From positions 1 to 49,081 of the forward strand of contig CAZENB010000002.1 of the NCBI GenBank assembly GCA_964513555.1: a stretch of DNA of 49,081 bases, written 5' to 3'. Both the position numbers and the translations under genes were made by a program. Shown here in pieces: positions 2,956 through 46,654 of the stretch (positions within the stretch are counted from its first letter, which is position 1; every line of letters begins with the position of its first letter). Source of the stretch: an uncultured Rhizobium sp. (GTDB lineage: Bacteria; Pseudomonadota; Alphaproteobacteria; Rickettsiales; UBA1997). The notes beneath the pieces are model-generated. The model worked only from the letters and a program-made list of their open reading frames with translations, was not told the DNA's origin and did not search any database.

Positions 2956-3663
2956 ATGTTACATTCAGAAATTAAAGATCGTCTAATTATTGCTCTTGAT
3001 GTTCCAGATTTTATATCCGCAAAAAATTTAGTTGAAAAAATTGAAGAAGAGGGTGTTTTTTATAAGATAGGATTAGAATTAATGATGAGCGGTGATTACT
3101 TTAAAATTATAGAATGGCTTAAAGAAAGAAATAAAAAAGTTTTTGCTGATTTGAAGCTTTATGACATATCTGAAACTGTTGGAAGATCTGTTAAAAATTT
3201 AGCTCAATATGAAATAGATTTGCTGACTATTCATGCATCAAGTCGTCAAATTATGGAACAAGCTGCTCAAAATAAAGGTAAAATGCAAATTGCTGCAGTA
3301 ACAGTTTTGACAAATTTAGATCAAAGTGATTTAAAAGAAATGGGTTTTGATGTTAATATTTCTTTGTCAGATTTAGTGATTAAAAAAGCTGAATTAGCAA
3401 TTGATTGTGGTATTGATGGAGTTGTGGCATCAAGTCATGAAAGCGGAATGTTGAGAGGAAAATTGGGGCAAGATTTTTTAATTGTAACACCGGGAATTAG
3501 ATTGGCAAAAGTTGCAAATGACGATCAGAAAAGGGTTGCTGATGTGAAAGAAGCAATTAGTCAAGGAAGCTCTTATTTAGTGGTTGGAAGACCAATTACT
3601 CGTGATGAAAATCCAAAAGAAATGGCGGCTAAGTTTAATAAAATGATTTACTCTGCTTTATGA
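2956..3663 (+). CDS. pyrF: orotidine 5'-phosphate decarboxylase
   Basis: LIIALDV, FADLKLYDI, TPGIR and VVGRPI motifs; 235 aa. Confidence 0.9.
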   Translation: MLHSEIKDRLIIALDVPDFISAKNLVEKIEEEGVFYKIGLELMMSGDYFKIIEWLKERNKKVFADLKLYDISETVGRSVKNLAQYEIDLLTIHASSRQIMEQAAQNKGKMQIAAVTVLTNLDQSDLKEMGFDVNISLSDLVIKKAELAIDCGIDGVVASSHESGMLRGKLGQDFLIVTPGIRLAKVANDDQKRVADVKEAISQGSSYLVVGRPITRDENPKEMAAKFNKMIYSAL

Positions 3664-5183
3664 AGCTAAACCAATTTATTGATAAAATAGAAATTTCTTA
3701 CGAATTAATTTATGGTGCAAGTTTTATTGATGAAATTTTAGTTGAAGATATTGCAATTGACTCGCGTTTAGTAAAAGAAAAAACAGCCTTTTTTGCTATA
3801 AAAGGTAAAGTTCTTGATGGCAACTTTTTTATTAATGATTCTATAAAAAAAGGCGCCTCAGTAATTGTTTCTTCTGATATTGAGTTTTTAAAGAATTTAG
3901 CTTTAGTCGATGAGAAAGTGCTGTTAATTTTTTCTCAAGAAATTCATAAGCTTCTTATAGAATTTTTGCAGAATTTCTATTCAAATTTACCTTCAAATAT
4001 CTACGCAGTTACAGGAACTAATGGTAAAACTTCAGTTGCTGAGTTTTGTCGTCAAATTTTTACATTAGCTGGAAAAAAAGCAGCTTCAATTGGAACTTTG
4101 GGTGTTACTTGTGATTACTTAGACCAGAATCAAATTCAACAAACTGCTCTTACAACTCCTGATATAGTTTCTTTTTACAAAAACCTTTCTTTTTTGAAGA
4201 AAAACGGTGTTGATGATGTTGCAATTGAAGTTAGTTCAATTGGGCTTGAACAAAACCGAACTGGCAAAGTTGGTATTACAGTTGGTGCTTTTACTAATTT
4301 TACCCAAGATCATTTAGATTATCATAATACCATGGAAGAGTATTTTGATTGCAAAATGATTTTATTTAAATCTGTTTTGCAACAAAACTCTACTGCAGTT
4401 ATAAATAGTGATATCAAAGAGTATCAAGAAATTAATGAAATTTGTCAGAAAAGAGATTTAAAAGTCATAAGTTATGGCTTTGAAGCAATTTCAAAGAATT
4501 CTTTGCGAATTATAAATATAGAACAAACTTTTGAGGGACAAAAAGTTGCCTTTGAATTTTTGGGTGAAGAATATAATTTTAATTTGTCTATTAGTGGTGA
4601 TTTTCAGGCTTATAACGCAATTTGTGCTTTAGGTATTTTTCTTTCAAACAATAGTTGTTCTAAGAAACAATTGGAAGAAATTTTGCAAAATTTCCATAAA
4701 CTACATTCTGCTTTGGGAAGAATGCAAATAGCAGGAGTTTTGCCAAATAAAGCTCAAGTTTTTATTGATTTTGCACATACTCCGGATGCTTTAAGTAATG
4801 TTTTGCAATTGGCACGTAAAATTACCAATAAAAAAGTGGTAGTACTTTTTGGTTGCGGTGGAAATCGTGATAATAAAAAAAGAGCAATTATGGGAAAAGT
4901 TGCTTCAGAGTTAGCTGATATTATTATAGTTACTGATGATAATCCAAGATTGGAAGATGCAAAAAAAATTCGTGCTGAAATTTTGCAAGGATGTGATTTG
5001 AAAAAAGCTTTTGAAATTGCTAACAGGGAAATTGCAATTACTAAAGCAATTCCAATGTTGCAAAGTTATGATATTTTGATTTTGGCTGGTAAAGGTCATG
5101 AAAAATATCAAATAATTGGTACAAACAAAGTTGAATTTGATGAGGAAAAAATTGTTCGAAATGTTGTTGCCAGAATATCTTAA
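3660..5183 (+). CDS. murE: UDP-N-acetylmuramoyl-L-alanyl-D-glutamate--2,6-diaminopimelate ligase
   Basis: VTGTNGKTS P-loop, DDNPR(LED) DAP-specificity motif, Mur ligase domain order. ATGA overlap with pyrF. Confidence 0.92.
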   Translation: MKLNQFIDKIEISYELIYGASFIDEILVEDIAIDSRLVKEKTAFFAIKGKVLDGNFFINDSIKKGASVIVSSDIEFLKNLALVDEKVLLIFSQEIHKLLIEFLQNFYSNLPSNIYAVTGTNGKTSVAEFCRQIFTLAGKKAASIGTLGVTCDYLDQNQIQQTALTTPDIVSFYKNLSFLKKNGVDDVAIEVSSIGLEQNRTGKVGITVGAFTNFTQDHLDYHNTMEEYFDCKMILFKSVLQQNSTAVINSDIKEYQEINEICQKRDLKVISYGFEAISKNSLRIINIEQTFEGQKVAFEFLGEEYNFNLSISGDFQAYNAICALGIFLSNNSCSKKQLEEILQNFHKLHSALGRMQIAGVLPNKAQVFIDFAHTPDALSNVLQLARKITNKKVVVLFGCGGNRDNKKRAIMGKVASELADIIIVTDDNPRLEDAKKIRAEILQGCDLKKAFEIANREIAITKAIPMLQSYDILILAGKGHEKYQIIGTNKVEFDEEKIVRNVVARIS

Positions 5184-8100
5184 AACAAAATTCCAAATTG
5201 ATTTTATTGACCTTTATGATGTTGAGGGATTAAAAAAAGTTGATGAAAAATTTTCACAATTTCTAGAACAAGAAAATAATCAATTAAACAAAGATTTTTT
5301 ACAGTTAAAAAAAGATAAAAATAGTTTTACTGCTAATCAGCAATCCTTAATTCTAATTGATGTAGCGGTTGTGTTAGAAAAGTTCTTAGTTACTTTATTT
5401 AACATAGAAAAAGAAAATTCAGAACTAAAAAGTAAGCATGATAACTTAAAAAATATTTACAAAATTAGACGTAATTTTGTTCAAAGAGATGTTGCAAAAA
5501 GTTTTTCTAGTTGCCCAAGGGATATTGATGGATTTTCAATCTTAAAAAATTTGAAAATTGAGTTTGATGATGTTGATGATTTAGAGAAAAAGATTGCTGA
5601 AGAGATAAATTTGGGAAGGAATTTAAAAGATCTTACGAATTATACAATATGGGCCATATATAGTGATGAAGGGAAAAAATTTCATAAAAATGGTGCTCTT
5701 TTTATTATTCCACAAAAAATTGATTGCAATAACTTGCTTGCCTCAAGTCATGAAAAATCTAAACGTTCAGATTTTAATCTAACTGATCAAGGATTTAATT
5801 TAAATCGTGTTTTAGGAGAATCCAACTATTGTATTTTTTGCCATAAACAACAGAAAGATTCTTGTAGAAGTGGTATTAAAGAACGATCTTCTTTTTGTTA
5901 TCCTGAGAGCAGCGAAGGATCTTGTACAACAAACTCAGGATTTTCTCAAGATTCTTCGTTTTTGCCTCAGAATGACAAGAAGAGATTTCAAGATGAAAAT
6001 AAATTCAAGAAAGATGAGCTTGGCATTGATTTGCATGGATGTCCACTTGATGAAAGAATTTCAGAAATGAATTTACTAAAGTCAGAAGGCTTTTCAGTTG
6101 CGGCTCTTTCAATTGCAGTTGTTGATAATCCAATGATTGCTGGAACTGGACACAGAATTTGTAATGATTGCACAAAATCTTGTATTTATCAAAAACAAGA
6201 ACCAGTCGATATTCCTCAAATTGAAACTAGAACTTTAAAAGATGTTCTGAATTTACCTTATGGATTTGAGATTTACTCTTTATTGACTAGATGGAATCCA
6301 CTCAATTTAGATCAAAGTTTACCTAGAGAAAATTCTGGTAAAAAAATTTTAATTGCTGGTCTTGGTCCTTCAGGATACACTTTGGCGCATTATTTGCTTA
6401 ACTCAGGACATGAAGTGGTTGCAATTGATGGTCTTAAAATTGAGCCTCTAAACAAAGAGATATCTGGATTAGATGAGTTTGGAAATATTTGCGATTTTAA
6501 GCCTATTAAATTTTTAGATGAAATTTACGAACCTCTATCATCGCGCTTGATTCATGGTTTCGGTGGTGTTGCTGAATATGGAATTACAGTTCGTTTTGAC
6601 AAAAATTTCTTAAAAATTATTAGAATTATTTTAGAACGCAGAAGAAATTTCAGAATGTTTGGAGGAATTCGTTTTGGGTCATCAATTACTGACAAAATTG
6701 CATTTGAAAATTATGGTTTTGACCATGTAGCGCTTTGTCTTGGAGCTGGTCGTCCCAACATAATTAATCTTAAAAATAACTTTGCCAAGGGTGTGCGTCA
6801 AGCTTCTGATTTTTTGATGTCTTTACAGTTAACGGGTTCTTTCAAAGAAAATTTATTTACTAATTTGCAAATTAGAATGCCAATTGTTGTTATTGGTGGA
6901 GGATTAACTGCAGTTGATACAGCTTGCGAAGCAAGAATGTACTACGTAAGTCAAATTAAAAAATTTGTCCAAAAAGTTGAAAAAATTGGTAAAAATAACC
7001 TATTTTCATTGCTTACTAAAGAAGAAAAAATAATTGCTGAAGAATTTATAAGTCATGCTTCTGAGCTTGAAAATAGTGGTGATATTGATTTTTTGATTAG
7101 AAAGTGGGGTGGAGTTAAAATTTTATATCGTAAAAAAATTCAGGATTCTCCAGCATATAAGTTGAACCACCAAGAGCTTAACAAAGCTTTTGAAGAAGGA
7201 ATTGAGTTTATTGAAAATATTAGTCCTTTGGAAGTTGAAATTGATGAATTTAATCATATCAAAGCTTTGAAATGCGCTGATGATAAATTATTTGAATGTA
7301 GATCTTTGTTAGTTGCGGCTGGAACTTCACCAAATTTATCTCCAAAATTAGAGGATAATTTAGATTTTAAAATTGATGGAAAATATTTTGCACAAACCGT
7401 GCATTTTAATTCCAATTTTGGCTCAAGACACTTTAATTTTATTACTAAAATTGATGATAAAACTAAAAAAGCGGTAAGTTTTTTTGGGGATTTGCATCCA
7501 AATTTTGAAGGAAATGTGGTAAAAGCAATGGCAAGTTCCAAGATTGGCTATAAGCAGATAAATCAAATGCTGGAATTGTTACAAAATAAAGAAAATCACA
7601 ATTTTCTGGATAAAATTAAATCAGAATTTTCAGTAATAATTCATAAAATTGAGAAACTATCAGATCATGTTTGTCAAATTTTTATTAAAGCTCCACTTTT
7701 GGCAAATCAGACAGAGCTGGGTCATATTTTTAGATTGCAGAATTATCATGCTCTTGCCTTAAAAGATGAAAGTGGTCATTTAATGGTAATGGAAGGAGTT
7801 CCTTTGACGGCTTTAGATGTTGATCGTGAAAATGGAATTATTACAGCAATTGCTTTGGATTTTGGTGGCTCTACATCTCTTATTAAAAATTTAAGTGAAG
7901 GTGAGCCTTGTATTTTTATGGGACCTTCAGGAAAACCAACCGAAATTTCAAAAAATGAAACGGTGTTGTTAATTGGAGGTGGAAGAGGAAATCAGCCTTT
8001 AACTGCTCTTGCTAGAGCTTTTAGAAACAATGGTTGTAGAGTAATTTACTTTGCTGGTTATCGCAAAAATTCTTACATTGTGAATCAAGAATTGATGGAA

Positions 8101-8550
8101 AAAAACTCTGATATTGTTGTTTTTGCAATTGAAGAAGAAGCCCCAAATTTGAATCTAATCAATGAATGCAATCAAGTAGTAAGTGGATCAGTAATTGAAG
8201 CGCTGAGAATTTACTTTGTCAAAAACCCTGTAAAAATTGATCGTGTATTTACAATTGGAAATAATAAAATGATGCATGAAGTTGCAAAATTGAGACATGA
8301 TGGTTCAGTTAAATCTATCTCAGAAGCAAAAATTGCTATTACTAGTTTAAATTCTCCAATGCAATGTATGCTAAAAGGCGTTTGTTCACAGTGTTTGCAA
8401 AAAAGAATCAATCAGCAAGGTAAAGAGGAGTATTTTTATTCTTGTGGTGATCAAGATCAGAATATGGATAAGTTTGATTTTAATCACCTGAAAAATCGTT
8501 GTGAGCAGAACTCTTTGATGGAAAAAACAATAAAAAATTGGTTGAATTAA
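5161..8550 (+). CDS. large multidomain iron-sulfur flavoprotein: GltD-like (4Fe-4S Cys motif plus NAD(P)/FAD Rossmann) fused to a PyrK/FNR-like domain with a C-terminal 2Fe-2S Cys motif
   Basis: CIFCHKQQKDSC...GCPLDERISEM (GltD-like cluster motif). ILIAGLGPSGYTLAHYLL and VVIGGGLTAVD dinucleotide folds. C-terminal FMGPSGKPT...LLIGGGRGNQP...CMLKGVCSQCLQK...YSCGDQD (PyrK-like). The start is ambiguous (TTG 5116, ATG 5140, ATG 5161); 5161 was chosen to minimise overlap with murE. Confidence 0.65.
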   Translation: MLLPEYLKTKFQIDFIDLYDVEGLKKVDEKFSQFLEQENNQLNKDFLQLKKDKNSFTANQQSLILIDVAVVLEKFLVTLFNIEKENSELKSKHDNLKNIYKIRRNFVQRDVAKSFSSCPRDIDGFSILKNLKIEFDDVDDLEKKIAEEINLGRNLKDLTNYTIWAIYSDEGKKFHKNGALFIIPQKIDCNNLLASSHEKSKRSDFNLTDQGFNLNRVLGESNYCIFCHKQQKDSCRSGIKERSSFCYPESSEGSCTTNSGFSQDSSFLPQNDKKRFQDENKFKKDELGIDLHGCPLDERISEMNLLKSEGFSVAALSIAVVDNPMIAGTGHRICNDCTKSCIYQKQEPVDIPQIETRTLKDVLNLPYGFEIYSLLTRWNPLNLDQSLPRENSGKKILIAGLGPSGYTLAHYLLNSGHEVVAIDGLKIEPLNKEISGLDEFGNICDFKPIKFLDEIYEPLSSRLIHGFGGVAEYGITVRFDKNFLKIIRIILERRRNFRMFGGIRFGSSITDKIAFENYGFDHVALCLGAGRPNIINLKNNFAKGVRQASDFLMSLQLTGSFKENLFTNLQIRMPIVVIGGGLTAVDTACEARMYYVSQIKKFVQKVEKIGKNNLFSLLTKEEKIIAEEFISHASELENSGDIDFLIRKWGGVKILYRKKIQDSPAYKLNHQELNKAFEEGIEFIENISPLEVEIDEFNHIKALKCADDKLFECRSLLVAAGTSPNLSPKLEDNLDFKIDGKYFAQTVHFNSNFGSRHFNFITKIDDKTKKAVSFFGDLHPNFEGNVVKAMASSKIGYKQINQMLELLQNKENHNFLDKIKSEFSVIIHKIEKLSDHVCQIFIKAPLLANQTELGHIFRLQNYHALALKDESGHLMVMEGVPLTALDVDRENGIITAIALDFGGSTSLIKNLSEGEPCIFMGPSGKPTEISKNETVLLIGGGRGNQPLTALARAFRNNGCRVIYFAGYRKNSYIVNQELMEKNSDIVVFAIEEEAPNLNLINECNQVVSGSVIEALRIYFVKNPVKIDRVFTIGNNKMMHEVAKLRHDGSVKSISEAKIAITSLNSPMQCMLKGVCSQCLQKRINQQGKEEYFYSCGDQDQNMDKFDFNHLKNRCEQNSLMEKTIKNWLN
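5900..5977 (+). repeat. palindromic element family 1, copy A, inserted in frame in the flavoprotein CDS
   Basis: Left arm atcctgagagcagcgaaggatct (5900-5922) and right arm agattcttcgtttttgcctcagaatgaca (5949-5977) are imperfect inverted repeats. The 78 nt equal 26 codons and encode (Y)PESSEGSCTTNSGFSQDSSFLPQND. The arms match copies at 15398, 45721 and 36191. Confidence 0.75.
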
Positions 8551-10668: not shown

Positions 10669-11746
10669 TTTAAAAAAAAATCTGGTTAGTTATTACATTG
10701 ATGATAATGAAAAATTAGATGAGTTACTGGATCTGATTGCAAAATCAGAAGTAATTGCAATTGATACTGAATTTACAAGAGAAAAAACTTATTACTCAAT
10801 TTTGTCTTTGATTCAAATTGCTGTTAAAGATGGTAAGAAAAAACACTCTTTTATTGTTGATTGTCTAGCAGATATTAATCTGAAAAAGTTGTTTCAAGTT
10901 ATAAATGATCCAAAAGTTACAAAAATTCTTCATTCTTCTTTACAAGATTTACAAATTTTCTATAAACACTCAAAAACGTTGCCCAAAGGAATTTCAGATA
11001 CGCAAATTATGGCAAATTTTTGTGGTTTTGACTTTAATATTGGTTATTCTGCTTTGGTTGAAAAGTTTTTTGATAAAATAATTGATAAGAGTCAGCAAAG
11101 AAGTGATTGGCAAAAAAGGCCACTTACACAAAAACAAATTGATTATGCTTTGTCAGATGTCAAATATTTGGAAGAAATTCATGATAAAATGAATGATATT
11201 CTAGAATCAAAAGGACGTAAGACTTGGTATTTAGAGGAAGTAAAAAATTTTGTTAAAGCTTCAGTTGCAAAACCAGAAGAAAATTTATTCAAAAACTTTG
11301 TTTTTCAAAAAAAAACTTCCAAAGAAATTTCTCAAATAAAGAGATTAATTTTATGGCGTGAATCTTGGGCCCAAAAACTTGATATTCCAAGACAGCATTT
11401 TTTACGGGACCATGTTATTGAAAGAATTGTTATGAAAAATGATTTAAGTTTAAAATTAGAAAAAAAAGCCATTGAAGAAATAAAAAAAATTATGGATATG
11501 GAAGAGCTTTTAACAGAAAACAATTTTGTAGAAAAACATTTTCTGATGACGGAACAACAAAAAAGATCTTTCAAAAAAGCAAAAAAACTTATTTCTAAAA
11601 TTGCTTTGGAACAAGATTTGAAAGAACAATTCTTAATTTCCACACTAACTTTAAAAAATTTGGTTTGCGGTTATAAAAATATTGATGAAATAATTTATGG
11701 ATGGAGATTTGAAGTTTTTGGTTCTGAACTAAAAAAAATTATTTAG
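10646..11746 (+). CDS. rnd: ribonuclease D
   Basis: DEDD exonuclease motifs (IAIDTEF, HSSLQDLQIF, QIDYALSDVKYL) plus an HRDC-like C-terminal half. No ATG lies near the 5' end, so the start is uncertain (GTG 10646 or TTG 10655). Confidence 0.85.
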   Translation: MVELGFINLKKNLVSYYIDDNEKLDELLDLIAKSEVIAIDTEFTREKTYYSILSLIQIAVKDGKKKHSFIVDCLADINLKKLFQVINDPKVTKILHSSLQDLQIFYKHSKTLPKGISDTQIMANFCGFDFNIGYSALVEKFFDKIIDKSQQRSDWQKRPLTQKQIDYALSDVKYLEEIHDKMNDILESKGRKTWYLEEVKNFVKASVAKPEENLFKNFVFQKKTSKEISQIKRLILWRESWAQKLDIPRQHFLRDHVIERIVMKNDLSLKLEKKAIEEIKKIMDMEELLTENNFVEKHFLMTEQQKRSFKKAKKLISKIALEQDLKEQFLISTLTLKNLVCGYKNIDEIIYGWRFEVFGSELKKII

Positions 11747-11857: not shown

Positions 11858-12700
11858 ATGAAAATTATTGTTGCAAATTGGAAAATGAATCATGCTTTTG
11901 AAGAAGCTGATTCTTGGCTTAAAGTTTTTTCTAAACTTGTTTTAGATAATAAAAATAAATTTGCTGAAATTGAATCAGTTGTTTGCCCACCTGTTTTTAT
12001 GATTGATTATATTGACAGTGAATTAATGGATAATGGTTTTAGAAAACTGGACTCAATCGTAAAAAGTCAAAATAGAAATATTGAAAGTTTTACTGAAGAA
12101 GAATTAAGCGAAATTATTTTAAAAGAACGTCCAATAAAGATTGGTGGACAAGATTGTCATTTTGAAGATTCTGGTTCTTTTACAGGTGATATAAGTGCTT
12201 CTTCACTTAAAAAAATTGGCTGTGAATATGTAATTCTTGGTCATTCTGAGAGAAGGGAAGGACACTTTGAGACTAATGAAATTATTGCAAAGAAAGTTAC
12301 CGCAGCCTTAAAAAAAAATATAACGCCAATAATTTGTGTTGGGGAAAGTAAAGAAACTCGTGATCAATCAAAGCATTTAGAGTTTGTTTATAAACAGATT
12401 ATGAGTTCAGTTCCTCAAGATATAAAATTTGATAAATTGATCATTGCTTATGAGCCCATTTGGTCAATTGGAACAGGAGTCACTCCAAGTTCTGAACAAA
12501 TTAAGGAAATGGCAAAATTAACTAAGAAAATTTTTGCTGAAAAATTGGACGGTGTTGCAAATCAATATTTTATGCTTTACGGCGGTTCGGTAACTTCACA
12601 AAATTCTGCTGAAATTTTGAAAATTGAAAATGTTGATGGACTTTTGGTGGGCAAGGCAAGCCTTGATGCTGAGGAGTTTGTCCGTATTTGTTTATCTTAA
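11858..12700 (+). CDS. tpiA: triosephosphate isomerase
   Basis: ANWKMN, GHSERR, AYEPIWSIGTG and YGGSV motifs. At 280 aa it carries an extra segment after the CPP motif. Confidence 0.92.
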   Translation: MKIIVANWKMNHAFEEADSWLKVFSKLVLDNKNKFAEIESVVCPPVFMIDYIDSELMDNGFRKLDSIVKSQNRNIESFTEEELSEIILKERPIKIGGQDCHFEDSGSFTGDISASSLKKIGCEYVILGHSERREGHFETNEIIAKKVTAALKKNITPIICVGESKETRDQSKHLEFVYKQIMSSVPQDIKFDKLIIAYEPIWSIGTGVTPSSEQIKEMAKLTKKIFAEKLDGVANQYFMLYGGSVTSQNSAEILKIENVDGLLVGKASLDAEEFVRICLS

Positions 12701-14259: not shown

Positions 14260-14670
14260 ATGAAAAATTTAGATATTCGTTGTAAACAAAGGTTTCAAAA
14301 TTATGAAAAAGCTTTTGCGCTTTTGAGTGATGCTTTGAAAGATGGTGCTGATAAATTGTCGCTTTTAGAAAAAGAAGGTGCGCTACAACGTTTTGAATTT
14401 ACTTTTGAATTGGCGTGGAAAGTAATGAAAGATTACTTGGAAGAAAGCGGTGTGGTGATAAATCCAGTAACCCCAAAAAATGTTATTAAACAGGCTTTTG
14501 TTGCCAAGATTATAGAAAATGGACAAGTTTGGATTGATATGTTAATGAGTCGTAATCTTATGTCGCACACTCATGATTTTATAAAATTTGAAGCAATTGC
14601 CAAGGATGTTGAAACAAAATATTTGTCTGAACTTAAGAAGTTGGAACAATTTTTTAAGACAACACTATGA
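14260..14670 (+). CDS. hepT: HEPN-domain protein, HI0074 family (nucleotidyltransferase substrate-binding protein); HepT-like toxin
   Basis: LQRFEFTFELAWKVMKDYLEE core and an Rx4H motif (SRNLMSH); 136 aa. Confidence 0.85.
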   Translation: MKNLDIRCKQRFQNYEKAFALLSDALKDGADKLSLLEKEGALQRFEFTFELAWKVMKDYLEESGVVINPVTPKNVIKQAFVAKIIENGQVWIDMLMSRNLMSHTHDFIKFEAIAKDVETKYLSELKKLEQFFKTTL

Positions 14671-14966
14671 AATGCGGTCTTGAAGAACAGCAATTAAAGT
14701 TAATAAATTCAGTTTTCTCTCAAAATAATAAAATTAAATCAGTCAAGGTTTTTGGTTCTCGCGCTAAAGGAAATTATCGTCCTAATTCTGATATTGATTT
14801 GGCAATTGATGGTGAAATTAATGATATTGAGGCTCAATTAATTTTAACTCAATTAGATGATCTTCCACTGCCATATATTTTTGATGTTAAAGTTGTTAAA
14901 AATATAAATAATGCTGATTTAGTTGAGCATATAAAAAGAGTTGGAATATCAATTTATGAAAAATAA
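14667..14966 (+). CDS. mntA: minimal nucleotidyltransferase (MNT), HI0073 family; MntA-like antitoxin
   Basis: VFGSRAKGNYRPNSDIDLAI (GSxxxG...DxD NTase motif); 99 aa; ATGA overlap with the HEPN gene. Confidence 0.85.
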   Translation: MKCGLEEQQLKLINSVFSQNNKIKSVKVFGSRAKGNYRPNSDIDLAIDGEINDIEAQLILTQLDDLPLPYIFDVKVVKNINNADLVEHIKRVGISIYEK

Positions 14967-16230
14967 CAATTTTGACATTATAATAATTGGTGGATCATTT
15001 GCTGGAATGACTTCCGCTCTTGCTTTAAGCAACGTGTCGCCCAATTTAGAAATTGCGGTGATTGAGAAACAAGATATCACAAAAGAAGATAGAAAAGCTG
15101 ATGGTAGAGCTTATGCAATTTCCGCTGCATCATTAAAGTTATTCAAAGAAATTGGTATTTATAACGATTTAAAATCTATAGCTGGAAAAATTTCTGATAT
15201 AAAAATTACTGATTATAAATCGCCATTCTTTCTTGATTTTTTAGGAAAAGAAGTTGATGAAAAAGAAGGTCAATTAGGACAAATTATTGAAAATCATCAT
15301 ATTCATAATGCACTTAGAAATAAGCTCTTAAAGCGTGAAAACATTACTCTTTTTTGTCCTCATTCATATGAAGAAATTAATTTTGAACATCATTGTAATC
15401 CTAAGCGAAGTGAAGGATCTCATAATAATGAAGTTTGTAACACGAAATCTTTCGTTTGCGCTCAGGATAACAAAAACGGTAATGTTTTAGTAAAACTTGA
15501 TGATGGGAAAGTTTTGAAGTCAAAATTGCTTTTGGCTTGTGATGGTCGTTTTTCTAAGTTGCGTGAGATTTATCAAATTCCAACTACTCAAAAAAAATAT
15601 CATCAAACAGCAATAGTTTTTAATGTGCAGCATAAAAATTCTCATGAAAACGTAGCTTATGAAAAGTTTTTACCAGGTGGTCCTTTGGCAATTCTTCCAA
15701 TGCAAAATAAATATCAATCATCAATTGTTTGGATTGCAAAAGACAATGATGCACAAGCAATACTTAGTTTGGATGAAGAAAATTTTGTACATCAATTACA
15801 AAAGAAAATAGAAAATTCTTTGGGTGATGTTCAAGTTATTTCACAAAAATTCTCTTATCCTTTAATTTTGGTTGAAGCCAACAAATTCTATCATGAAAAG
15901 ATGCTTTTGATTGGAGATGCTTCAGCCGGAGTTCATCCGATTGCAGGACAAGGCTTTAATCTGGCAATTAGTGGAATTAATATTTTGTGTAATTTGATTA
16001 AGAATGCCTTATTTTGTGGACAAGATATTGCATCAAAAAGTGTGATTGAAGAATATAATAAGAAGGCAAAGCTGGGTGCAAAAAAAATGATTATTGCAAC
16101 TGACATTCTAAATTCCATTTTTGAAACCAAAAGTTTTTCTATTGCTTTAGCTCGTGATGTTGGTCTTGGTTTAGTAAATAAAATCTCTGTTTTAAAAAAG
16201 TTTTTTATTAAATCTGCAGGCGGATTTTAG
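14956..16230 (+). CDS. ubiH: UbiH/UbiF/VisC/COQ6-family FAD-dependent ubiquinone-biosynthesis hydroxylase
   Basis: DIIIIGGSFAGMTSALAL (GxGxxG), LLLACDGRFSKLRE, LIGDASAGVHPIAGQGFNLAI. ATG at 14956 is preferred to the track's TTG at 14941. The gene overlaps the mntA stop by 11 nt. Confidence 0.85.
   Translation: MKNNNFDIIIIGGSFAGMTSALALSNVSPNLEIAVIEKQDITKEDRKADGRAYAISAASLKLFKEIGIYNDLKSIAGKISDIKITDYKSPFFLDFLGKEVDEKEGQLGQIIENHHIHNALRNKLLKRENITLFCPHSYEEINFEHHCNPKRSEGSHNNEVCNTKSFVCAQDNKNGNVLVKLDDGKVLKSKLLLACDGRFSKLREIYQIPTTQKKYHQTAIVFNVQHKNSHENVAYEKFLPGGPLAILPMQNKYQSSIVWIAKDNDAQAILSLDEENFVHQLQKKIENSLGDVQVISQKFSYPLILVEANKFYHEKMLLIGDASAGVHPIAGQGFNLAISGINILCNLIKNALFCGQDIASKSVIEEYNKKAKLGAKKMIIATDILNSIFETKSFSIALARDVGLGLVNKISVLKKFFIKSAGGF
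15398..15472 (+). repeat. palindromic element family 1, copy B, inserted in frame in the ubiH-like CDS
   Basis: Left arm atcctaagcgaagtgaaggatct (15398-15420) and right arm aaatctttcgtttgcgctcaggataaca (15445-15472). The 75 nt equal 25 codons and encode (N)PKRSEGSHNNEVCNTKSFVCAQDN. Orientation and reading frame are the same as copy A. Confidence 0.75.
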
Positions 16231-45001: not shown

Positions 45002-45619
45002 ATGACAAAAAGAATTAACGCAAAAAAGAAATTCAGCAGAAAATTAGGCGCAAGTCTTTGGGGACAAGCTAAAGATCCTTTTGCTAAAAGAAATTATAAA
45101 CCAGGACAACATGGTGCTTCTCCTAAAGGAAGGCCAAGCGATTATGGTAATCAGCTTCGTGCTAAGCAAAGAATGAAATTTTATTATGGTAACATTTCTG
45201 AGAAACAATTCTTCAACCTTTTCCAATTAGCAAGCAAATCGAAAGGTGATGTAAGTGAAAACTTTGTAGCACTCCTTGAAAGCAGAATTGATGCTGTTAT
45301 TTATCGTGCAAACTTTGTTCCTACAGTTTTTGCAGCAAGACAATTTGTTAACCACAAACACGTAACTGTTAACGGACAAGTTGTTAACATTCCTTCTTAC
45401 AGAGTTAAAATTGGTGATGTTGTACAAGTTAGAGAAAGATCTCGTAAATTGACAATTGTTATGGAATCTTTACAAAAAATGGAAAGAGATATTCCAAGCT
45501 ACTTGCAACTTGATAAAGACACTTTCAGCATTAAATTGACTGAAAAACCAGCATTTGCTGAAGTTCCTTATCCTGTTGAAATGCAACCACATTTCATTAC
45601 AGAGTTTTATTCAAGATAG
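45002..45619 (+). CDS. rpsD: 30S ribosomal protein S4
   Basis: 205 aa. N-terminal KLGASLWG...YKPGQHG and an S4 RNA-binding domain (LESRIDAVIYRANF..T...ARQFVNHKHVTVNGQVVNIPSYRVK). Confidence 0.96.
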   Translation: MTKRINAKKKFSRKLGASLWGQAKDPFAKRNYKPGQHGASPKGRPSDYGNQLRAKQRMKFYYGNISEKQFFNLFQLASKSKGDVSENFVALLESRIDAVIYRANFVPTVFAARQFVNHKHVTVNGQVVNIPSYRVKIGDVVQVRERSRKLTIVMESLQKMERDIPSYLQLDKDTFSIKLTEKPAFAEVPYPVEMQPHFITEFYSR

Positions 45620-45720: not shown

Positions 45721-45760
45721 CTGTCATCCTTAGTAAAGCGAAGGATGACAGAATTTTTTT
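45721..45760 (+). terminator. rho-independent terminator of rpsD formed by the left arm of repeat copy C
   Basis: Perfect 11-bp stem ctgtcatcctt/aaggatgacag with a 9-nt loop, followed by aattttttt. Confidence 0.65.
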
Positions 45761-45806
45761 ATCATAGATGATTTGTTTAGATTCTTCGTTTTGTTACGGA
45801 TGAAAC
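45721..45806. repeat. palindromic element family 1, copy C (full-length, intergenic)
   Basis: Left arm ctgtcatccttagtaaagcgaaggatgacag (45721-45751) and right arm agattcttcgttttgttacggatgaaac (45779-45806) align with the arms of copies A and B. Confidence 0.7.
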
Positions 45807-45832: not shown

Positions 45833-46654
45833 TTATGCTGTAAGATGTTTAGCTATCTCGCAGAATTGTTCAATTGTGAGATTTTCTGCTCTTAATTGTG
45901 GATCAATTTTTGTTTTTTGCAAAACTTCTTCTACGTCTTTAAAAACTGATTTTAAAGAAGATCTGATCATTTTTCTTCTTTGATTAAAAGCTGCCGCAAC
46001 AACTTTTTCTAGTTTATTGAAATTAACATCAGAAGTTGGTTTTTCTTTTGGAATAATTTCAACAATTGCTGATGTAACCTTTGGTGGAGGAGTAAAAACT
46101 GTTTTATTAACAGTAAACACCATTCTTGTATCACACAAAAAATTAATCATAACTGCTAATCTTCCATAATGATTATCGCCAACTTTTGCTGTAATTCTTT
46201 CTACAACTTCCTTTTGCAACATTAAATGCATTGAAGATATATTATTTGATATCTTTAACCATTTAAAGATTAAAACAGTTCCAATATTATAGGGTAAATT
46301 TGCTATAATTTTAAATTTTCTATCACCAAATAAGTCTTTTTCGTTAATTGTTAAAGCATCACCTGAAATAATTTTTAAATTTTCACCATAAAATATCTGA
46401 AGCTCTTTTAATGCTTCAATGCATCTTTCATCGCGCTCAATTGCGTACAGTTTTTTTGGTTTTGAATCAAGTATTGATCTTGTCAAACTTCCTGGTCCTG
46501 GACCAATTTCAAGAATTTCAAATTCTTCTAAACTGCCAGCAGATTTTACAATTTTGTCAGTAAAGTTTTTATCAAGAATAAAGTTTTGCCCCAGTGATTT
46601 TTTTGCATTTAGCTGATATTTTTTGATAATTTCTGAAGTGGAGAGGAGGGGCAT
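45833..46654 (-). CDS. rsmA: 16S rRNA (adenine1518/1519-N6)-dimethyltransferase
   Basis: LGQNFL, EIGPGPGSLT and NLPYNI motifs; 273 aa. Confidence 0.94.
   Translation of the reverse strand: MPLLSTSEIIKKYQLNAKKSLGQNFILDKNFTDKIVKSAGSLEEFEILEIGPGPGSLTRSILDSKPKKLYAIERDERCIEALKELQIFYGENLKIISGDALTINEKDLFGDRKFKIIANLPYNIGTVLIFKWLKISNNISSMHLMLQKEVVERITAKVGDNHYGRLAVMINFLCDTRMVFTVNKTVFTPPPKVTSAIVEIIPKEKPTSDVNFNKLEKVVAAAFNQRRKMIRSSLKSVFKDVEEVLQKTKIDPQLRAENLTIEQFCEIAKHLTA

Follow-up and report, generated by a model that had tools for sequence, protein, structure and literature searches.

How a palindromic repeat came to be translated between the cysteine ligands of an Fe-S cluster, and what kind of repeat it is, are the questions raised by a flavoprotein gene in the 49,081-nt stretch of DNA analyzed here (the window). 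The host is an alphaproteobacterium from a freshwater metagenome; it does not belong to Rickettsia, and its closest named relative is labeled Pelagibacterales. An earlier, sequence-only reading of this DNA had matched the segment to the Rickettsia palindromic elements (RPEs).

Results

The gene in question (5116..8550, plus strand) encodes an RP005-like fusion flavoprotein of 1144 aa when read from a TTG start, or of 1136 aa from the annotated start at 5140. The protein is composed of an RP005_N part, an NfnB/GltD-like Fe-S/FAD part, and a PyrK/NfnA-like part (Pfam; NCBIfam PRK06567), and its best matches in Foldseek are NfnABC, the large and small subunits of NfnI, DPD, and GltD. In the domain similar to the Fe-S domain of NfnB/GltD/DPD, the first Fe-S motif, C-x2-C-x7-C...C-P, carries between its third and fourth Cys a 35-codon in-frame insertion (SFCYPESSEGSCTTNSGFSQDSSFLPQNDKKRFQD; 5890..5994, plus strand), which lies between the invariant residues C242 and C301-P302. 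The sequence-only reading had placed the element in this Cys-ligand region as a 78-nt, 26-codon segment. The arms it quoted at 5900-5977 are indeed present and its placement holds, but the palindrome is longer (5890-5983) and the insertion comprises 35 codons. As that reading had also proposed, the insert at 5890-5994 is lineage-specific and in frame: in an alignment of 120 homologs, the distance from SNYCIFCH to GCPLDEKIS is 46 residues in most members versus 81 in the window protein, corresponding to a loop of 22 aa at baseline and 57 aa here, and the range between the anchors across the family is 41 to 82 residues. The nearest insert-free relatives are P0003 (73% identical) and P0040, for both of which the empty-site DNA was read. 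The suggestion that the peptide is not part of the domain agrees with the AlphaFold2 model of the protein (pTM 0.90), in which the sole long segment with pLDDT below 50, residues 251-285, is exactly the insert, which is thus predicted to form a disordered extra loop outside the fold. A host protein 100% identical to that of the window is found on four contigs, and two of these loci, from different assemblies, are 100% identical to the window over their overlaps, insert included, so the insert is no assembly artifact. Neither a target-site duplication nor the exact boundary of the element could be resolved by comparison of filled and empty alleles, which share 63-73% protein identity in a variable loop. 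Of the two hallmarks of a generic MITE, terminal inverted repeats and a target-site duplication, the element shows the inverted arms.

The region 5890-5983 folds at -40.5 kcal/mol with z = -6.6, and 0/200 shuffled sequences were equally stable, which bears out the hairpin expected from the complementary arms. The left arm (5895..5922, plus strand; TTGTTAT-CCTGAGA-GCA-GCGAAGG-ATCT) scores 28.2 bits (E = 5e-4) with CM R1, a covariance model built from arms of other phyla only; it is decayed, its tag having changed from GTCAT to GTTAT and one inner pair being broken. It is followed by a spacer (5923..5948, plus strand) that contains the family core ACAAACTC (alignment A4), and then by the right arm (5949..5978, minus strand; TTGTCAT-TCTGAG...CGAAGA-ATCT on that strand; 31.6 bits, E = 8e-5), in which the tag is intact and the ATTCT/AGAAT stem is compensated while the loop is enlarged and decayed.

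The arms recur, as had been noticed, in a second coding sequence and in intergenic DNA of the window. A flavin hydroxylase of the UbiH/UbiF/Coq6 family (14941..16230, plus strand; TIGR01988, E = 3.5e-108) carries an in-frame insertion of about 29-34 codons (FEHHCNPKRSEGSHNNEVCNTKSFVCAQDNKNGN; 15382..15483, plus strand), recognized as an alignment break against PDB 4n9x, where query residues 148-181 lie opposite 5 chain residues, 140-144. This copy (15393-15473, fold z = -3.3) consists of one arm at 15393..15420 (plus strand; TTGTAAT-CCTAAGC-GAA-GTGAAGG-ATCT; 24.7 bits, E = 3e-3) and a partner at 15445..15473 (minus strand), a strongly decayed 4-nt loop variant that was read directly and whose ortholog in a related locus, L003, is intact (40.3 bits with CM R1). 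An intergenic doublet at 45721..45806 (fold z = -4.2) lies between the convergent genes rpsD (ends at 45619) and rsmA (ends at 45833), with its left arm at 45721-45748 (plus strand; 18.1 bits, E = 0.11) and its right arm at 45779-45806 (minus strand). The fourth site is a solo arm, CTGTCATCCTGAGCGTAAGCGAAGAATGA (36193..36221, minus strand; 14.7 bits, E = 0.6), which contains the exact 14-mer TGTCATCCTGAGCG and lies 7 nt downstream of the 3' end of a ygfZ-like gene. CM R1 therefore finds five window arms at 31.6, 28.2, 24.7, 18.1, and 14.7 bits (E = 8e-5 to 0.6), the last two (E = 0.11 and 0.6) being marginal when taken singly, and a search with the 21-mer consensus allowing up to 3 mismatches gave 2 hits versus 0.00 expected by chance. 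The tags of the window arms read TGTT, TGTC, TGTA, TGTC, and TGTC. Over 68 kb of the contig, the count is three dimers and one solo arm. Because the spacer core ACAAACTC is common to all five in-CDS copies of alignment A4 and the UbiH copies run in the opposite direction to those of RP005, the doublet behaves as a single unit. A further match at 12240 was rejected as a copy, being the GHSERR motif of triose-phosphate isomerase. A generic repeat finder run on the whole window returned AT-rich noise alone, since divergence and indels hide the copies from it. Rfam, searched with the window at gathering threshold and with the window copy and canonical copies from locus L009 at permissive E, gave only sub-threshold matches to generic hairpins (miRNA), and a literature search by printed arm sequence retrieved unrelated primers alone.

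Each window arm is a decayed copy of the consensus TGTCAT-CCTGAGC-GNA-GCGAAGG-ATCT, that is, a 5' TGTC(AT) tag followed by the hairpin ATCCT-GA-GC-GNA-GC-GA-AGGAT. From the outside in, the hairpin consists of a 5-bp stem, tandem G.A/A.G pairs, a second stem of 2 bp, and a GNA triloop, which is replaced by 4-nt GNAA in some variants, so that the stem has 9 positions if the tandem G.A pairs are included, and the tail reads CT or CC. In an alignment of 88 arms, GTC never varies, which follows from how the set was built, and the consensus has T before it, and in loci selected with a search pattern that starts at CAT, GT almost always precedes the pattern, most often as TGT. The stem-closing AT...AT is equally regular, pair 6-68 being A-U in 115 and pair 7-67 U-A in 122 of 129 distinct arms. 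The hairpin predicted from these sequences is supported by covariation: in a set that was not selected by stem, 40/74 arms pair at 5/5 positions with six different compensated stems, and in alignment A5 all 7 stem pairs vary on both sides, with 134 compensated cells versus 25 +/- 13 in shuffles and 98.2% of cells paired versus at most 56.5% with the partners slid. The arm hairpin is nearly unchanged in more than 10 bacterial phyla. CATCCTGAGNNNAGCGAAGGATC has at least 120 matches, distributed among Acidobacteriota, Chloroflexota, Patescibacteria, Bacillota, Bacteroidota, Planctomycetota, Verrucomicrobiota, and other phyla, and an inverted partner lies within 250 nt of 62/144 arms.

All-against-all clustering of the ORFs around 120 arm loci revealed a gene for a GIY-YIG protein of ~95 aa, which lies between or beside the arms in 5/120 of these arm-selected loci. 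The protein belongs to PF01541 and is 46% identical (E = 2e-16) to the single Neisseria gonorrhoeae ssnA, which is embedded in an NTS cluster. Among 80 loci picked by the GIY-YIG protein alone, with arms ignored, an arm lies within 200 nt in 34 and arms lie on both sides in 18, and at least one covariance-model hit was obtained in 55. Arm density is 10.7 times higher within 150 nt of the GIY-YIG ORF (Poisson P about 1e-35), with the tags pointing outward. The arm class thus brackets Ssn-family genes in other genomes, and the arm-class single-stranded sequence TGTCATCCTGAGCGNAGCGAAGGATCT is a putative substrate of the Ssn proteins of the L074/L130 type. No ssn homolog was found by hmmsearch in the window, L001, or L003 (best E = 1.3), and no GIY-YIG product appears in the gene tables for the extended contig (68 kb). 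The spacers have a bimodal length distribution (10-156 nt and 300-501 nt), and the short ones contain no remnants of a GIY-YIG ORF, so that an origin of the doublets as decayed arm-ssn-arm units is unsupported.

Discussion

The Ssn proteins are single-domain GIY-YIG nucleases of ~95 aa that bind their motif as single-stranded DNA, on one strand only (PMC11893778). Chenal et al. (2025, Nat Commun 16:2388; PMC11893778), who measured activity on NTS-type motifs, showed that the nick is made a few nucleotides upstream of the tag, called the conserved tag crucial for the interaction with SsnA, and demonstrated nicking only, not transposition. The arms described here share with their Ssn-related motifs (SRMs) the layout of a hairpin repeat with a fixed orientation, in which (C/T)GTCAT is conserved on the 5' side and ATC follows on the 3' side. 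The GTCAT flank is common to NTS (CGTCATTCCCGCG...), and in other genomes inverted copies of the arm class bracket a ~95-aa single-domain GIY-YIG gene in the same manner, the gene of the published system being a ~94-aa homolog of Neisseria ssnA (tblastn E below 1e-10). The strength of the association is also similar, since 71% of ssnA homologs were reported to have at least one SRM and 42% to have SRMs on both sides (PMC11893778), as compared with a covariance-model hit in 55/80 loci and arms on both sides in 18/80 here. The systems differ in the hairpin body, which in SRMs has a GC-rich 8-bp stem and a 4-nt loop but in our arms has tandem G.A pairs and a GNA triloop, and in that the 68 kb of contig examined here is without an ssn gene. 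Indeed, the published SRM string, HGTCWYN(0-2)YYVSBRHN(0-5)WNVSBRGN(0-2)RNCYNB, which matches NTS as a positive control, found 0/140 canonical arms and had no match in either the window or 187 kb of Ssn loci. The miss lies with the operational definition and leaves the architecture unaffected.

The wider frame is provided by the superfamily of CGTC/TGTC-tagged REPs, which includes RPE-4, RPE-6, and the Neisseria dRS3/NTS repeats (Di Nocera et al., 2013, BMC Genomics 14:522; PMC3733652). Our element resembles these repeats in its terminal tag, CGTC or TGTC, which stays unpaired, in a stem of 8-9 bp whose first two pairs are A-T, and in a location that in the superfamily is mostly downstream of convergent or co-directional genes; in addition, most families of the superfamily are found in Alphaproteobacteria. 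The superfamily repeats occur many times per genome, mostly as dimers with spacers of 20-100 bp, and the count here is three dimers and one solo arm in 68 kb. Our element may depart from them in the tail, where the consensus is CCA versus CT(C) in our arms, and in the loop, which is 4-5 nt there versus a 3-nt GNA here (5 nt counting the closing pair), and it differs in the encoded peptides, as those of the CHPERSEGS...AQDD type are missing from the list of intragenic REPs given by Di Nocera et al. On these sequence features, the element can be assigned to the CGTC/TGTC-tagged REP superfamily and the Ssn/SRM system, and the kind of event it represents was already known, because in-frame tagged-REP dimers encoding 20-30 aa were documented in several species outside Rickettsia (PMC3733652). 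The same authors concluded in 2013 that the CGTC REPs lacked a dedicated enzyme, while the work on Ssn reports that NTS is rarely intragenic (2%) and discusses neither in-frame coding insertions nor RPEs (PMC11893778). The sequence-only reading was therefore correct in stating that the host is no Rickettsia, although the finding is less surprising than it had implied.

With RPEs (Ogata et al., 2000, 2002; reviewed in PMC10969869), the element shares the occurrence of a palindromic repeat in frame in unrelated housekeeping genes and also in intergenic DNA, an encoded peptide that is tolerated in loops, and copies that decay in place. The differences lie in length, RPEs being ~150 bp (PMC10969869) and the present element about 86 nt, and in distribution, as these arms are found in more than 10 phyla, well beyond the Rickettsiales. 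In behavior and at the superfamily level the element is RPE-like, but its peptides and hairpin body speak against a place in any of the Rickettsia RPE families, so the earlier match to RPEs stands for behavior and superfamily and very probably fails for family.

The segment is probably a selfish, non-autonomous palindromic repeat that landed in a tolerant loop on the protein surface and has since been translated along with its host as a passenger peptide. The element comprises two inverted tagged hairpin units, with tags outward, joined by a short family-specific spacer. We infer that an Ssn of matching specificity might have spread it in single-stranded DNA states, such as replication or transformation, and that the survivors would be the copies that kept the frame, were not read in the single frame of either arm that holds a stop, and landed in loops. 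The copies in this genome look like inactive relics, because mutations have altered the tags (to GTTAT and GTAAT), the decay of the hairpins has taken different courses in the window and the 87%-identical L003, and 68 kb contain no ssn. For this last reason, mobilization in trans within this genome stays a proposal.

Other origins of the segment can be weighed against this one. The loop might be natively variable and its palindromy coincidental, given the 41 to 82 residues found between the anchors across the family, but this reading is effectively refuted by the fold (z = -6.6), the hits of a covariance model built on other phyla, the same element in an unrelated gene and in intergenic DNA, and the close relatives with an empty site. 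REPINs moved by RAYTs are inverted doublets of short hairpins with a GTAG tag, and their enzyme is an HUH Y1 transposase. They resemble the present case in that inverted tagged-hairpin doublets accompany a small single-copy nuclease-type gene flanked by repeats, and REPINs have a similar doublet architecture with a variable spacer. The two systems are nevertheless told apart by TGTC and a GIY-YIG nuclease here versus GTAG and the Y1 transposase there, and clustering of the ORFs around the 120 arms turned up no recurrent transposase or RAYT but the GIY-YIG gene, which leaves a REPIN mobilized by a RAYT tyrosine transposase barely credible. Direct descent from one of the families RPE-1 to RPE-8 would explain why the behavior is the same as that of RPEs, two of which, RPE-4 and RPE-6, have been equated with the CGTC-4 and CGTC-1 tagged REPs (PMC3733652), and the host protein family is even named after Rickettsia RP005. 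Such descent is nonetheless very unlikely, as the five insert peptides have no match among NCBIfam models at E up to 10 and are unlike the CGTC-1/-3/-4 peptides listed by Di Nocera et al. (PMC3733652), the body CCTGAGCGNAGCGAAGG with its tandem G.A and triloop contrasts with the CGTC-1 NTS/dRS3-type TCCCGCG-MAV-GCGGGA seen in locus L204, and the host is not Rickettsia.

The role assigned to Ssn is more debatable. The doublet could have been spread by hairpin-driven template switching or slippage, by recombination between copies, or by another transposase, with ssn merely homing into, or being regulated by, pre-existing hairpins. The lack of an ssn gene in 68 kb, the bimodal spacer lengths with short spacers free of ORF remnants, a local tandem triplication of one arm end in L003 that represents slippage-type instability, and the fact that Chenal et al. 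show nicking and not transposition (PMC11893778) all fit such a process. We consider it unlikely, though less so than the other alternatives, because the 10.7-fold enrichment of arms around ssn with consistently outward tags is the layout of transposon ends, and the conserved tag is the very part that is crucial for SsnA interaction (PMC11893778). Whatever spread the element, the insert might since have been co-opted, either as an extra loop by the Fe-S cluster or as an mRNA hairpin, and be kept by selection. It does predate the split between the window and L003 lineages (about 87% DNA identity), its hairpin is very stable at -40.5 kcal/mol, and the same loop holds palindromic inserts in three lineages. 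Against this, the two lineages decayed different arms (28.2 and 31.6 bits in the window versus 49.8 and 13.7 bits in L003), so the pairing is not conserved; the insert peptide is, by eye, far less conserved between them than the 89% identity of the whole protein; its pLDDT is below 50; and most homologs function without it. Co-option thus appears improbable, and a passenger peptide derived from a tagged palindromic repeat remains our preferred interpretation.

What is new here is minor: the published SRM string misses this arm class, and insertions into the host loop appear to have arisen independently in other lineages. In the Fe-S loop of the RP005-like protein, two lineages carry this element family, with a shared spacer core, at one and the same codon-level position, and the nearest relatives of both have an empty site. 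A different hairpin class occupies that loop in a third lineage, so that a preference for this site is hinted at. Because the SRM string misses a pan-bacterial tandem G.A and GNA class that flanks Ssn homologs, surveys of Ssn motifs and of specificities for single-stranded DNA tools are incomplete. For annotation, CHPERSEGS...(F)AQDD or VILSEAKDL in proteins or "hypothetical ORFs" should be taken as a marker of the repeat, not as a protein domain. The case brings RPE-style "protein decoration" to a freshwater, AT-rich alphaproteobacterium outside the Rickettsiales, between the Fe-S ligands of an Nfn/GltD-like flavoprotein, and it ties the behavior of in-frame inserts to the recently described system of Ssn nucleases and hairpins. 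More tentatively, the hairpin may represent a separate Ssn specificity group missed by SRM searches, and the doublets may actively produce in-frame protein loops, with a preference for certain sites, well beyond Rickettsia.

Results

The window has a G+C content of ~30% and belongs to a 110-kb metagenome-assembly contig. Its tmRNA gene at 1329-1746, of the two-piece (permuted) alphaproteobacterial type (Rfam RF01849, 162 bits; RF04321, 124 bits), marks it as alphaproteobacterial. The RP005-like ORF at 5116-8550 (1144 codons; annotated start 5140) matches RP005_N and Pyr_redox_2 in Pfam, with a weak match to the dihydropyrimidine dehydrogenase 4Fe-4S domain, and PRK06567, ‘bifunctional glutamate synthase beta / 2-polyprenylphenol hydroxylase’, in NCBIfam, and its AlphaFold model (pTM 0.90) can be superposed on NfnABC, the two subunits of NfnI, DPD, and GltD. 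The sequence-only reading was therefore right to call the product a GltD/PyrK-like flavoprotein. A 100%-identical protein occurs on four contigs, and the two of these loci that were compared, from different assemblies, are 100% identical to the window over their overlaps; the nearest named relative, labeled ‘Pelagibacterales bacterium’, is syntenic with 89% protein identity.

In the alignment of 120 homologs, the distance from SNYCIFCH to GCPLDEKIS is 46 residues in most proteins and 81 in that of the window. The invariant cysteines comprise C231, C234, C242, and C301-P302 and, further along, C341, C344, and C348, which places the 35-residue excess (SFCYPESS...KKRFQD; nt 5890-5994) between the third and fourth cysteines of the first cluster motif. 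The insert is thus in frame and lineage-specific, and it sits, as had been claimed, within the Cys-ligand region, where it lies between C242 and C301. Residues 251-285, which correspond to the insert, are the sole long stretch with pLDDT <50, and the encoded peptide is predicted to be a disordered loop. The arms, or tagged hairpins, quoted earlier are present at 5900-5977, and the palindrome exists, but its reported extent was too short: positions 5890-5983 form a single long hairpin (−40.5 kcal/mol; z = −6.6 against 200 dinucleotide shuffles).

The recurrence of the arms in another CDS and in intergenic DNA was borne out. The other copy within a CDS interrupts a UbiH/Coq6-family hydroxylase gene (14941-16230), where query residues 148-181 face five chain residues in the alignment with PDB 4n9x; a doublet, i.e., two inverted arms with a spacer, is located between the convergent rpsD and rsmA genes (45721-45806), and a single arm lies directly 3′ of a ygfZ-like gene (36193-36221). 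A covariance-model scan of an additional 20 kb of the contig found no further arms, and an Rfam search returned no family matching the element. Positions 12240-12265 were ruled out as an arm copy: they encode the triose-phosphate isomerase signature GHSERR (ggtcattctgagagaagggaagga), which resembles the arm closely enough to be picked up falsely by simple pattern searches. Directly upstream of the UbiH-family gene and overlapping its start is a pair of small genes for NTase_sub_bind (PF08780; 14260-14670) and a nucleotidyltransferase (PF01909/Polbeta; ~14667-14966), at 19121-19531 and 19528-19827 in the numbering of locus L001; pairs of this kind resemble HEPN/MNT-type toxin-antitoxin modules.

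Both in-CDS insertions recur at identical sites in the syntenic relative L003 (~87% DNA identity), whose arms are far nearer a consensus (TGTCATCCTGAGCGNAGCGAAGGATCT ... AGATCCTTCGCTNCGCTCAGGATGACA) than those of the window. A covariance model built solely from arms of other phyla scored the L003 arms at 49.8, 44.8, and 40.3 bits and the window arms at 31.6, 28.2, 24.7, 18.1, and 14.7 bits, the two lowest being marginal by themselves. The UbiH insert of L003, orthologous to window 15379-15480, is 117 nt longer overall, with a 30-nt insertion directly upstream of the left arm (L003:14549-14578) and an 87-nt insertion (L003:14683-14769) in which the end of the right arm, GCTCAGRATGACAAAAGT, is repeated further in tandem copies; these copies are slippage-type instability of the element, and the CDS remains open (464 aa versus 424 aa in the window). 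The fumarase gene of L003 has a 54-nt in-frame insertion that is not in the window and is unlike the tagged hairpin (L003:12713-12766). Pairing runs several nucleotides past the tags, in an extension that varies from copy to copy and may either belong to the element or arise on insertion: TCTTCT..AGAAGA in the window RP005 copy (5890-5900 with 5976-5990), CCACTT..AAGTGG in the L003 UbiH copy (L003:14588-14600 with 14672-14682), and CCCACCC..GGGTGGG in the Chloroflexota copies L009 and L106.

When one genome was scanned for each species, CATCCTGAGNNNAGCGAAGGATC gave at least 120 matches, those listed coming from Acidobacteriota, Chloroflexota, Omnitrophota, Patescibacteria, Bacillota, Bacteroidota, Planctomycetota, Verrucomicrobiota, Gemmatimonadota, Nitrospirota, and several proteobacterial classes. 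GT, most frequently as TGT, nearly always precedes the match, and an inverted partner lies within 250 nt for 62 of the 144 arms among the matches listed, with spacers of 11-209 nt. Every arm forms a hairpin of its own. When arms were picked by the loop core alone, the 5-nt flanks were fully complementary in 40/74, with the compensated outer stems ATTCT/AGAAT, ATTCC/GGAAT, ATGCT/AGCAT, GTCCT/AGGAC, ATTTC/GAAAT, and ATGTT/AACAT, and the inner two pairs covary as GC/GC, AC/GT, and GT/AC. Among 129 distinct arms from Ssn-selected loci, two-sided changes occur at 7/7 pairs; in this alignment, whose fitting to the model favors the structure, compensated cells number 134 versus 25 ± 13 in shuffles, and paired cells amount to 98.2% versus at most 56.5% with slid partners. 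The unit is therefore composed of a TGTC tag, an ATCCT/AGGAT outer stem, a tandem G.A, a GC/GC inner stem, and a GNA triloop. The sequence d(GCGNAGC) is a well-known DNA mini-hairpin of unusual stability, suggesting that the structure is important as single-stranded DNA. Near ssn genes (L124, L139, L159, L176, and others), many covariance-model matches are 34-62 nt long, retaining the tag and outer stem with the triloop replaced by a long insertion, and hence the family includes expanded-loop variants.

ORF clustering around 120 arm-selected loci revealed no recurrent transposase, and in five of these loci a ~95-aa GIY-YIG ORF lies between or beside the arms, as in L074 (arm 3312-3338, ORF 3374-3700, arm 3685-3711). 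In the reverse test, with 80 metagenome loci selected by the GIY-YIG protein alone, a structured arm was found within 200 nt of the ORF in 34 loci and on both sides in 18, the tags of arms near the ORF facing outward. Less than 150 nt from the ORF, arms reached a density of 2.27 per kb, versus 0.21 per kb elsewhere (Poisson P ~1e-35); 83 arms were observed versus 0.3 in shuffled loci, and the covariance model detected at least one arm in 55/80. The spacing of inverted arms has a bimodal distribution, 10-156 nt where the ORF is absent and 300-501 nt where it is present. The protein is 46% identical to the sole N. gonorrhoeae gene inside an NTS cluster (tblastn E = 2e-16), which is within the homology limit set in PMC11893778. 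An Ssn-family gene with TGTCATTCTGAGTGAAACGAAGAATCT arms on its flanks occurs on Planktothrix agardhii plasmid p1 (NZ_LR882964.1, 18847-19131) and shows 66% identity to the L074 protein. Its neighbors are an MmeI-type restriction-modification gene on one side and drmA, a DISARM gene, on the other, a case in which Ssn units are possibly linked to defense islands.

Discussion

The window element is a TGTC-tagged REP/SRM doublet with RPE-like behavior, a kind already known; the observation made from sequence alone is confirmed, and its interpretation as an element that behaves like Rickettsia palindromic elements (RPEs) is supported. Di Nocera et al. (2013, PMC3733652) defined the CGTC/TGTC-tagged REP superfamily, chiefly in Alphaproteobacteria, noted CGTC at the ends of R. 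conorii RPE sequences, equated RPE-6 and dRS3 with CGTC-1 and RPE-4 with CGTC-4, and described intragenic REP dimers coding for 20-30 aa in several species. The window element resembles these REPs in its tag, AT-start stem, dimer layout, and gene-3′ sites; its characteristic insert peptides are not among their intragenic REPs, and the insert peptides matched no NCBIfam model. SsnA, a 94-aa single-domain GIY-YIG protein (CDD cd10448; Chenal et al. 2025, PMC11893778), binds the Neisseria hairpin repeat NTS (CGTCATTCCCGCGMAVGCGGGAATCYRG, containing dRS3) solely in the form of ssDNA and on just one of its strands, makes its cut upstream of this motif, and requires the upstream conserved flank for the interaction; 71% of ssnA homologs have an Ssn-related motif (SRM) nearby and 42% have SRMs on both sides, and the NTS-ssnA-NTS arrangement was likened to an insertion sequence. 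That report does not mention RPEs or in-frame insertions and describes NTS as rarely intragenic. The present arm class has a triloop and a tandem G.A where the published SRM/NTS has a tetraloop and a GC-rich stem. The search string given there for SRMs, which matched NTS, matched 0/140 canonical arms, none in the window, and none in 187 kb of Ssn-selected loci; the present class is a variant missed by that string.

The five in-CDS copies, in the RP005-like genes of the window, L003, and L212 and in the UbiH genes of the window and L003, share the spacer core ACAAACTC, and the UbiH copies are oriented opposite to the RP005-like copies; the doublet therefore behaves as one ~86-nt unit. The L212 protein (P0036, 63% identical to the window protein) has the same element family at the same codon-level position, with a compensated stem, ATGTT/AACAT. 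A single gain followed by many precise losses could account for this coincidence, but the nearest relatives of both filled proteins, P0040 (77%) for P0036 and P0003 (73%) for the window protein, have an empty 22-aa loop, as do nearly all 65 members of the NJ clade uniting the two lineages, and two independent gains are therefore the more parsimonious history. The subsequent fate of the RP005 copy differs between lineages, the right arm being better preserved in the window and the left arm in L003, and tags in the window have changed to GTTAT and GTAAT, a pattern that favors neutral decay over conservation of an RNA or DNA structure.

Other homologs carry tagged hairpins as well. In L213 (P0022), an in-frame doublet of a different tagged class, CTCATCCTTGGCGC-AAA-GCGCCGAGGATCT with an 11-bp GC-rich stem, occupies this Fe-S loop at a point 4-5 codons upstream of the insertion in the window protein (10670-10888), and a similar doublet is located between the fumarase and ubiH genes (L213:20726-20825). 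In P0069, arms of the present class mark a further insertion site of the family, at residues ~120-150 in the N-terminal RP005_N domain (...EEILRCAQDDNTIACHPERSKGS...).

The present analysis establishes the anatomy and covariation of the arm, the in-frame lineage-specific insertions of the element, the predicted disorder of the loop it encodes, and an association between this class of arms and Ssn-family genes. No ssn homolog was found in the 68 kb of the contig covered, and comparison of filled with empty sites did not bring out a target-site duplication. Ssn nucleases nick ssDNA upstream of their cognate tagged hairpin (PMC11893778), and a cognate Ssn may have spread the doublet through single-stranded DNA. 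Selection would then have retained only copies that keep the frame, lie in loops, and avoid the single stop-containing frame of each arm (left, TCA TCC TGA; right, GGA TGA). We infer that the copies in the window's genome are now inert relics. The significance of these findings lies in the blind spot of the SRM search string, the pan-bacterial conservation of the present hairpin, and the repeated insertions into one Fe-S loop.
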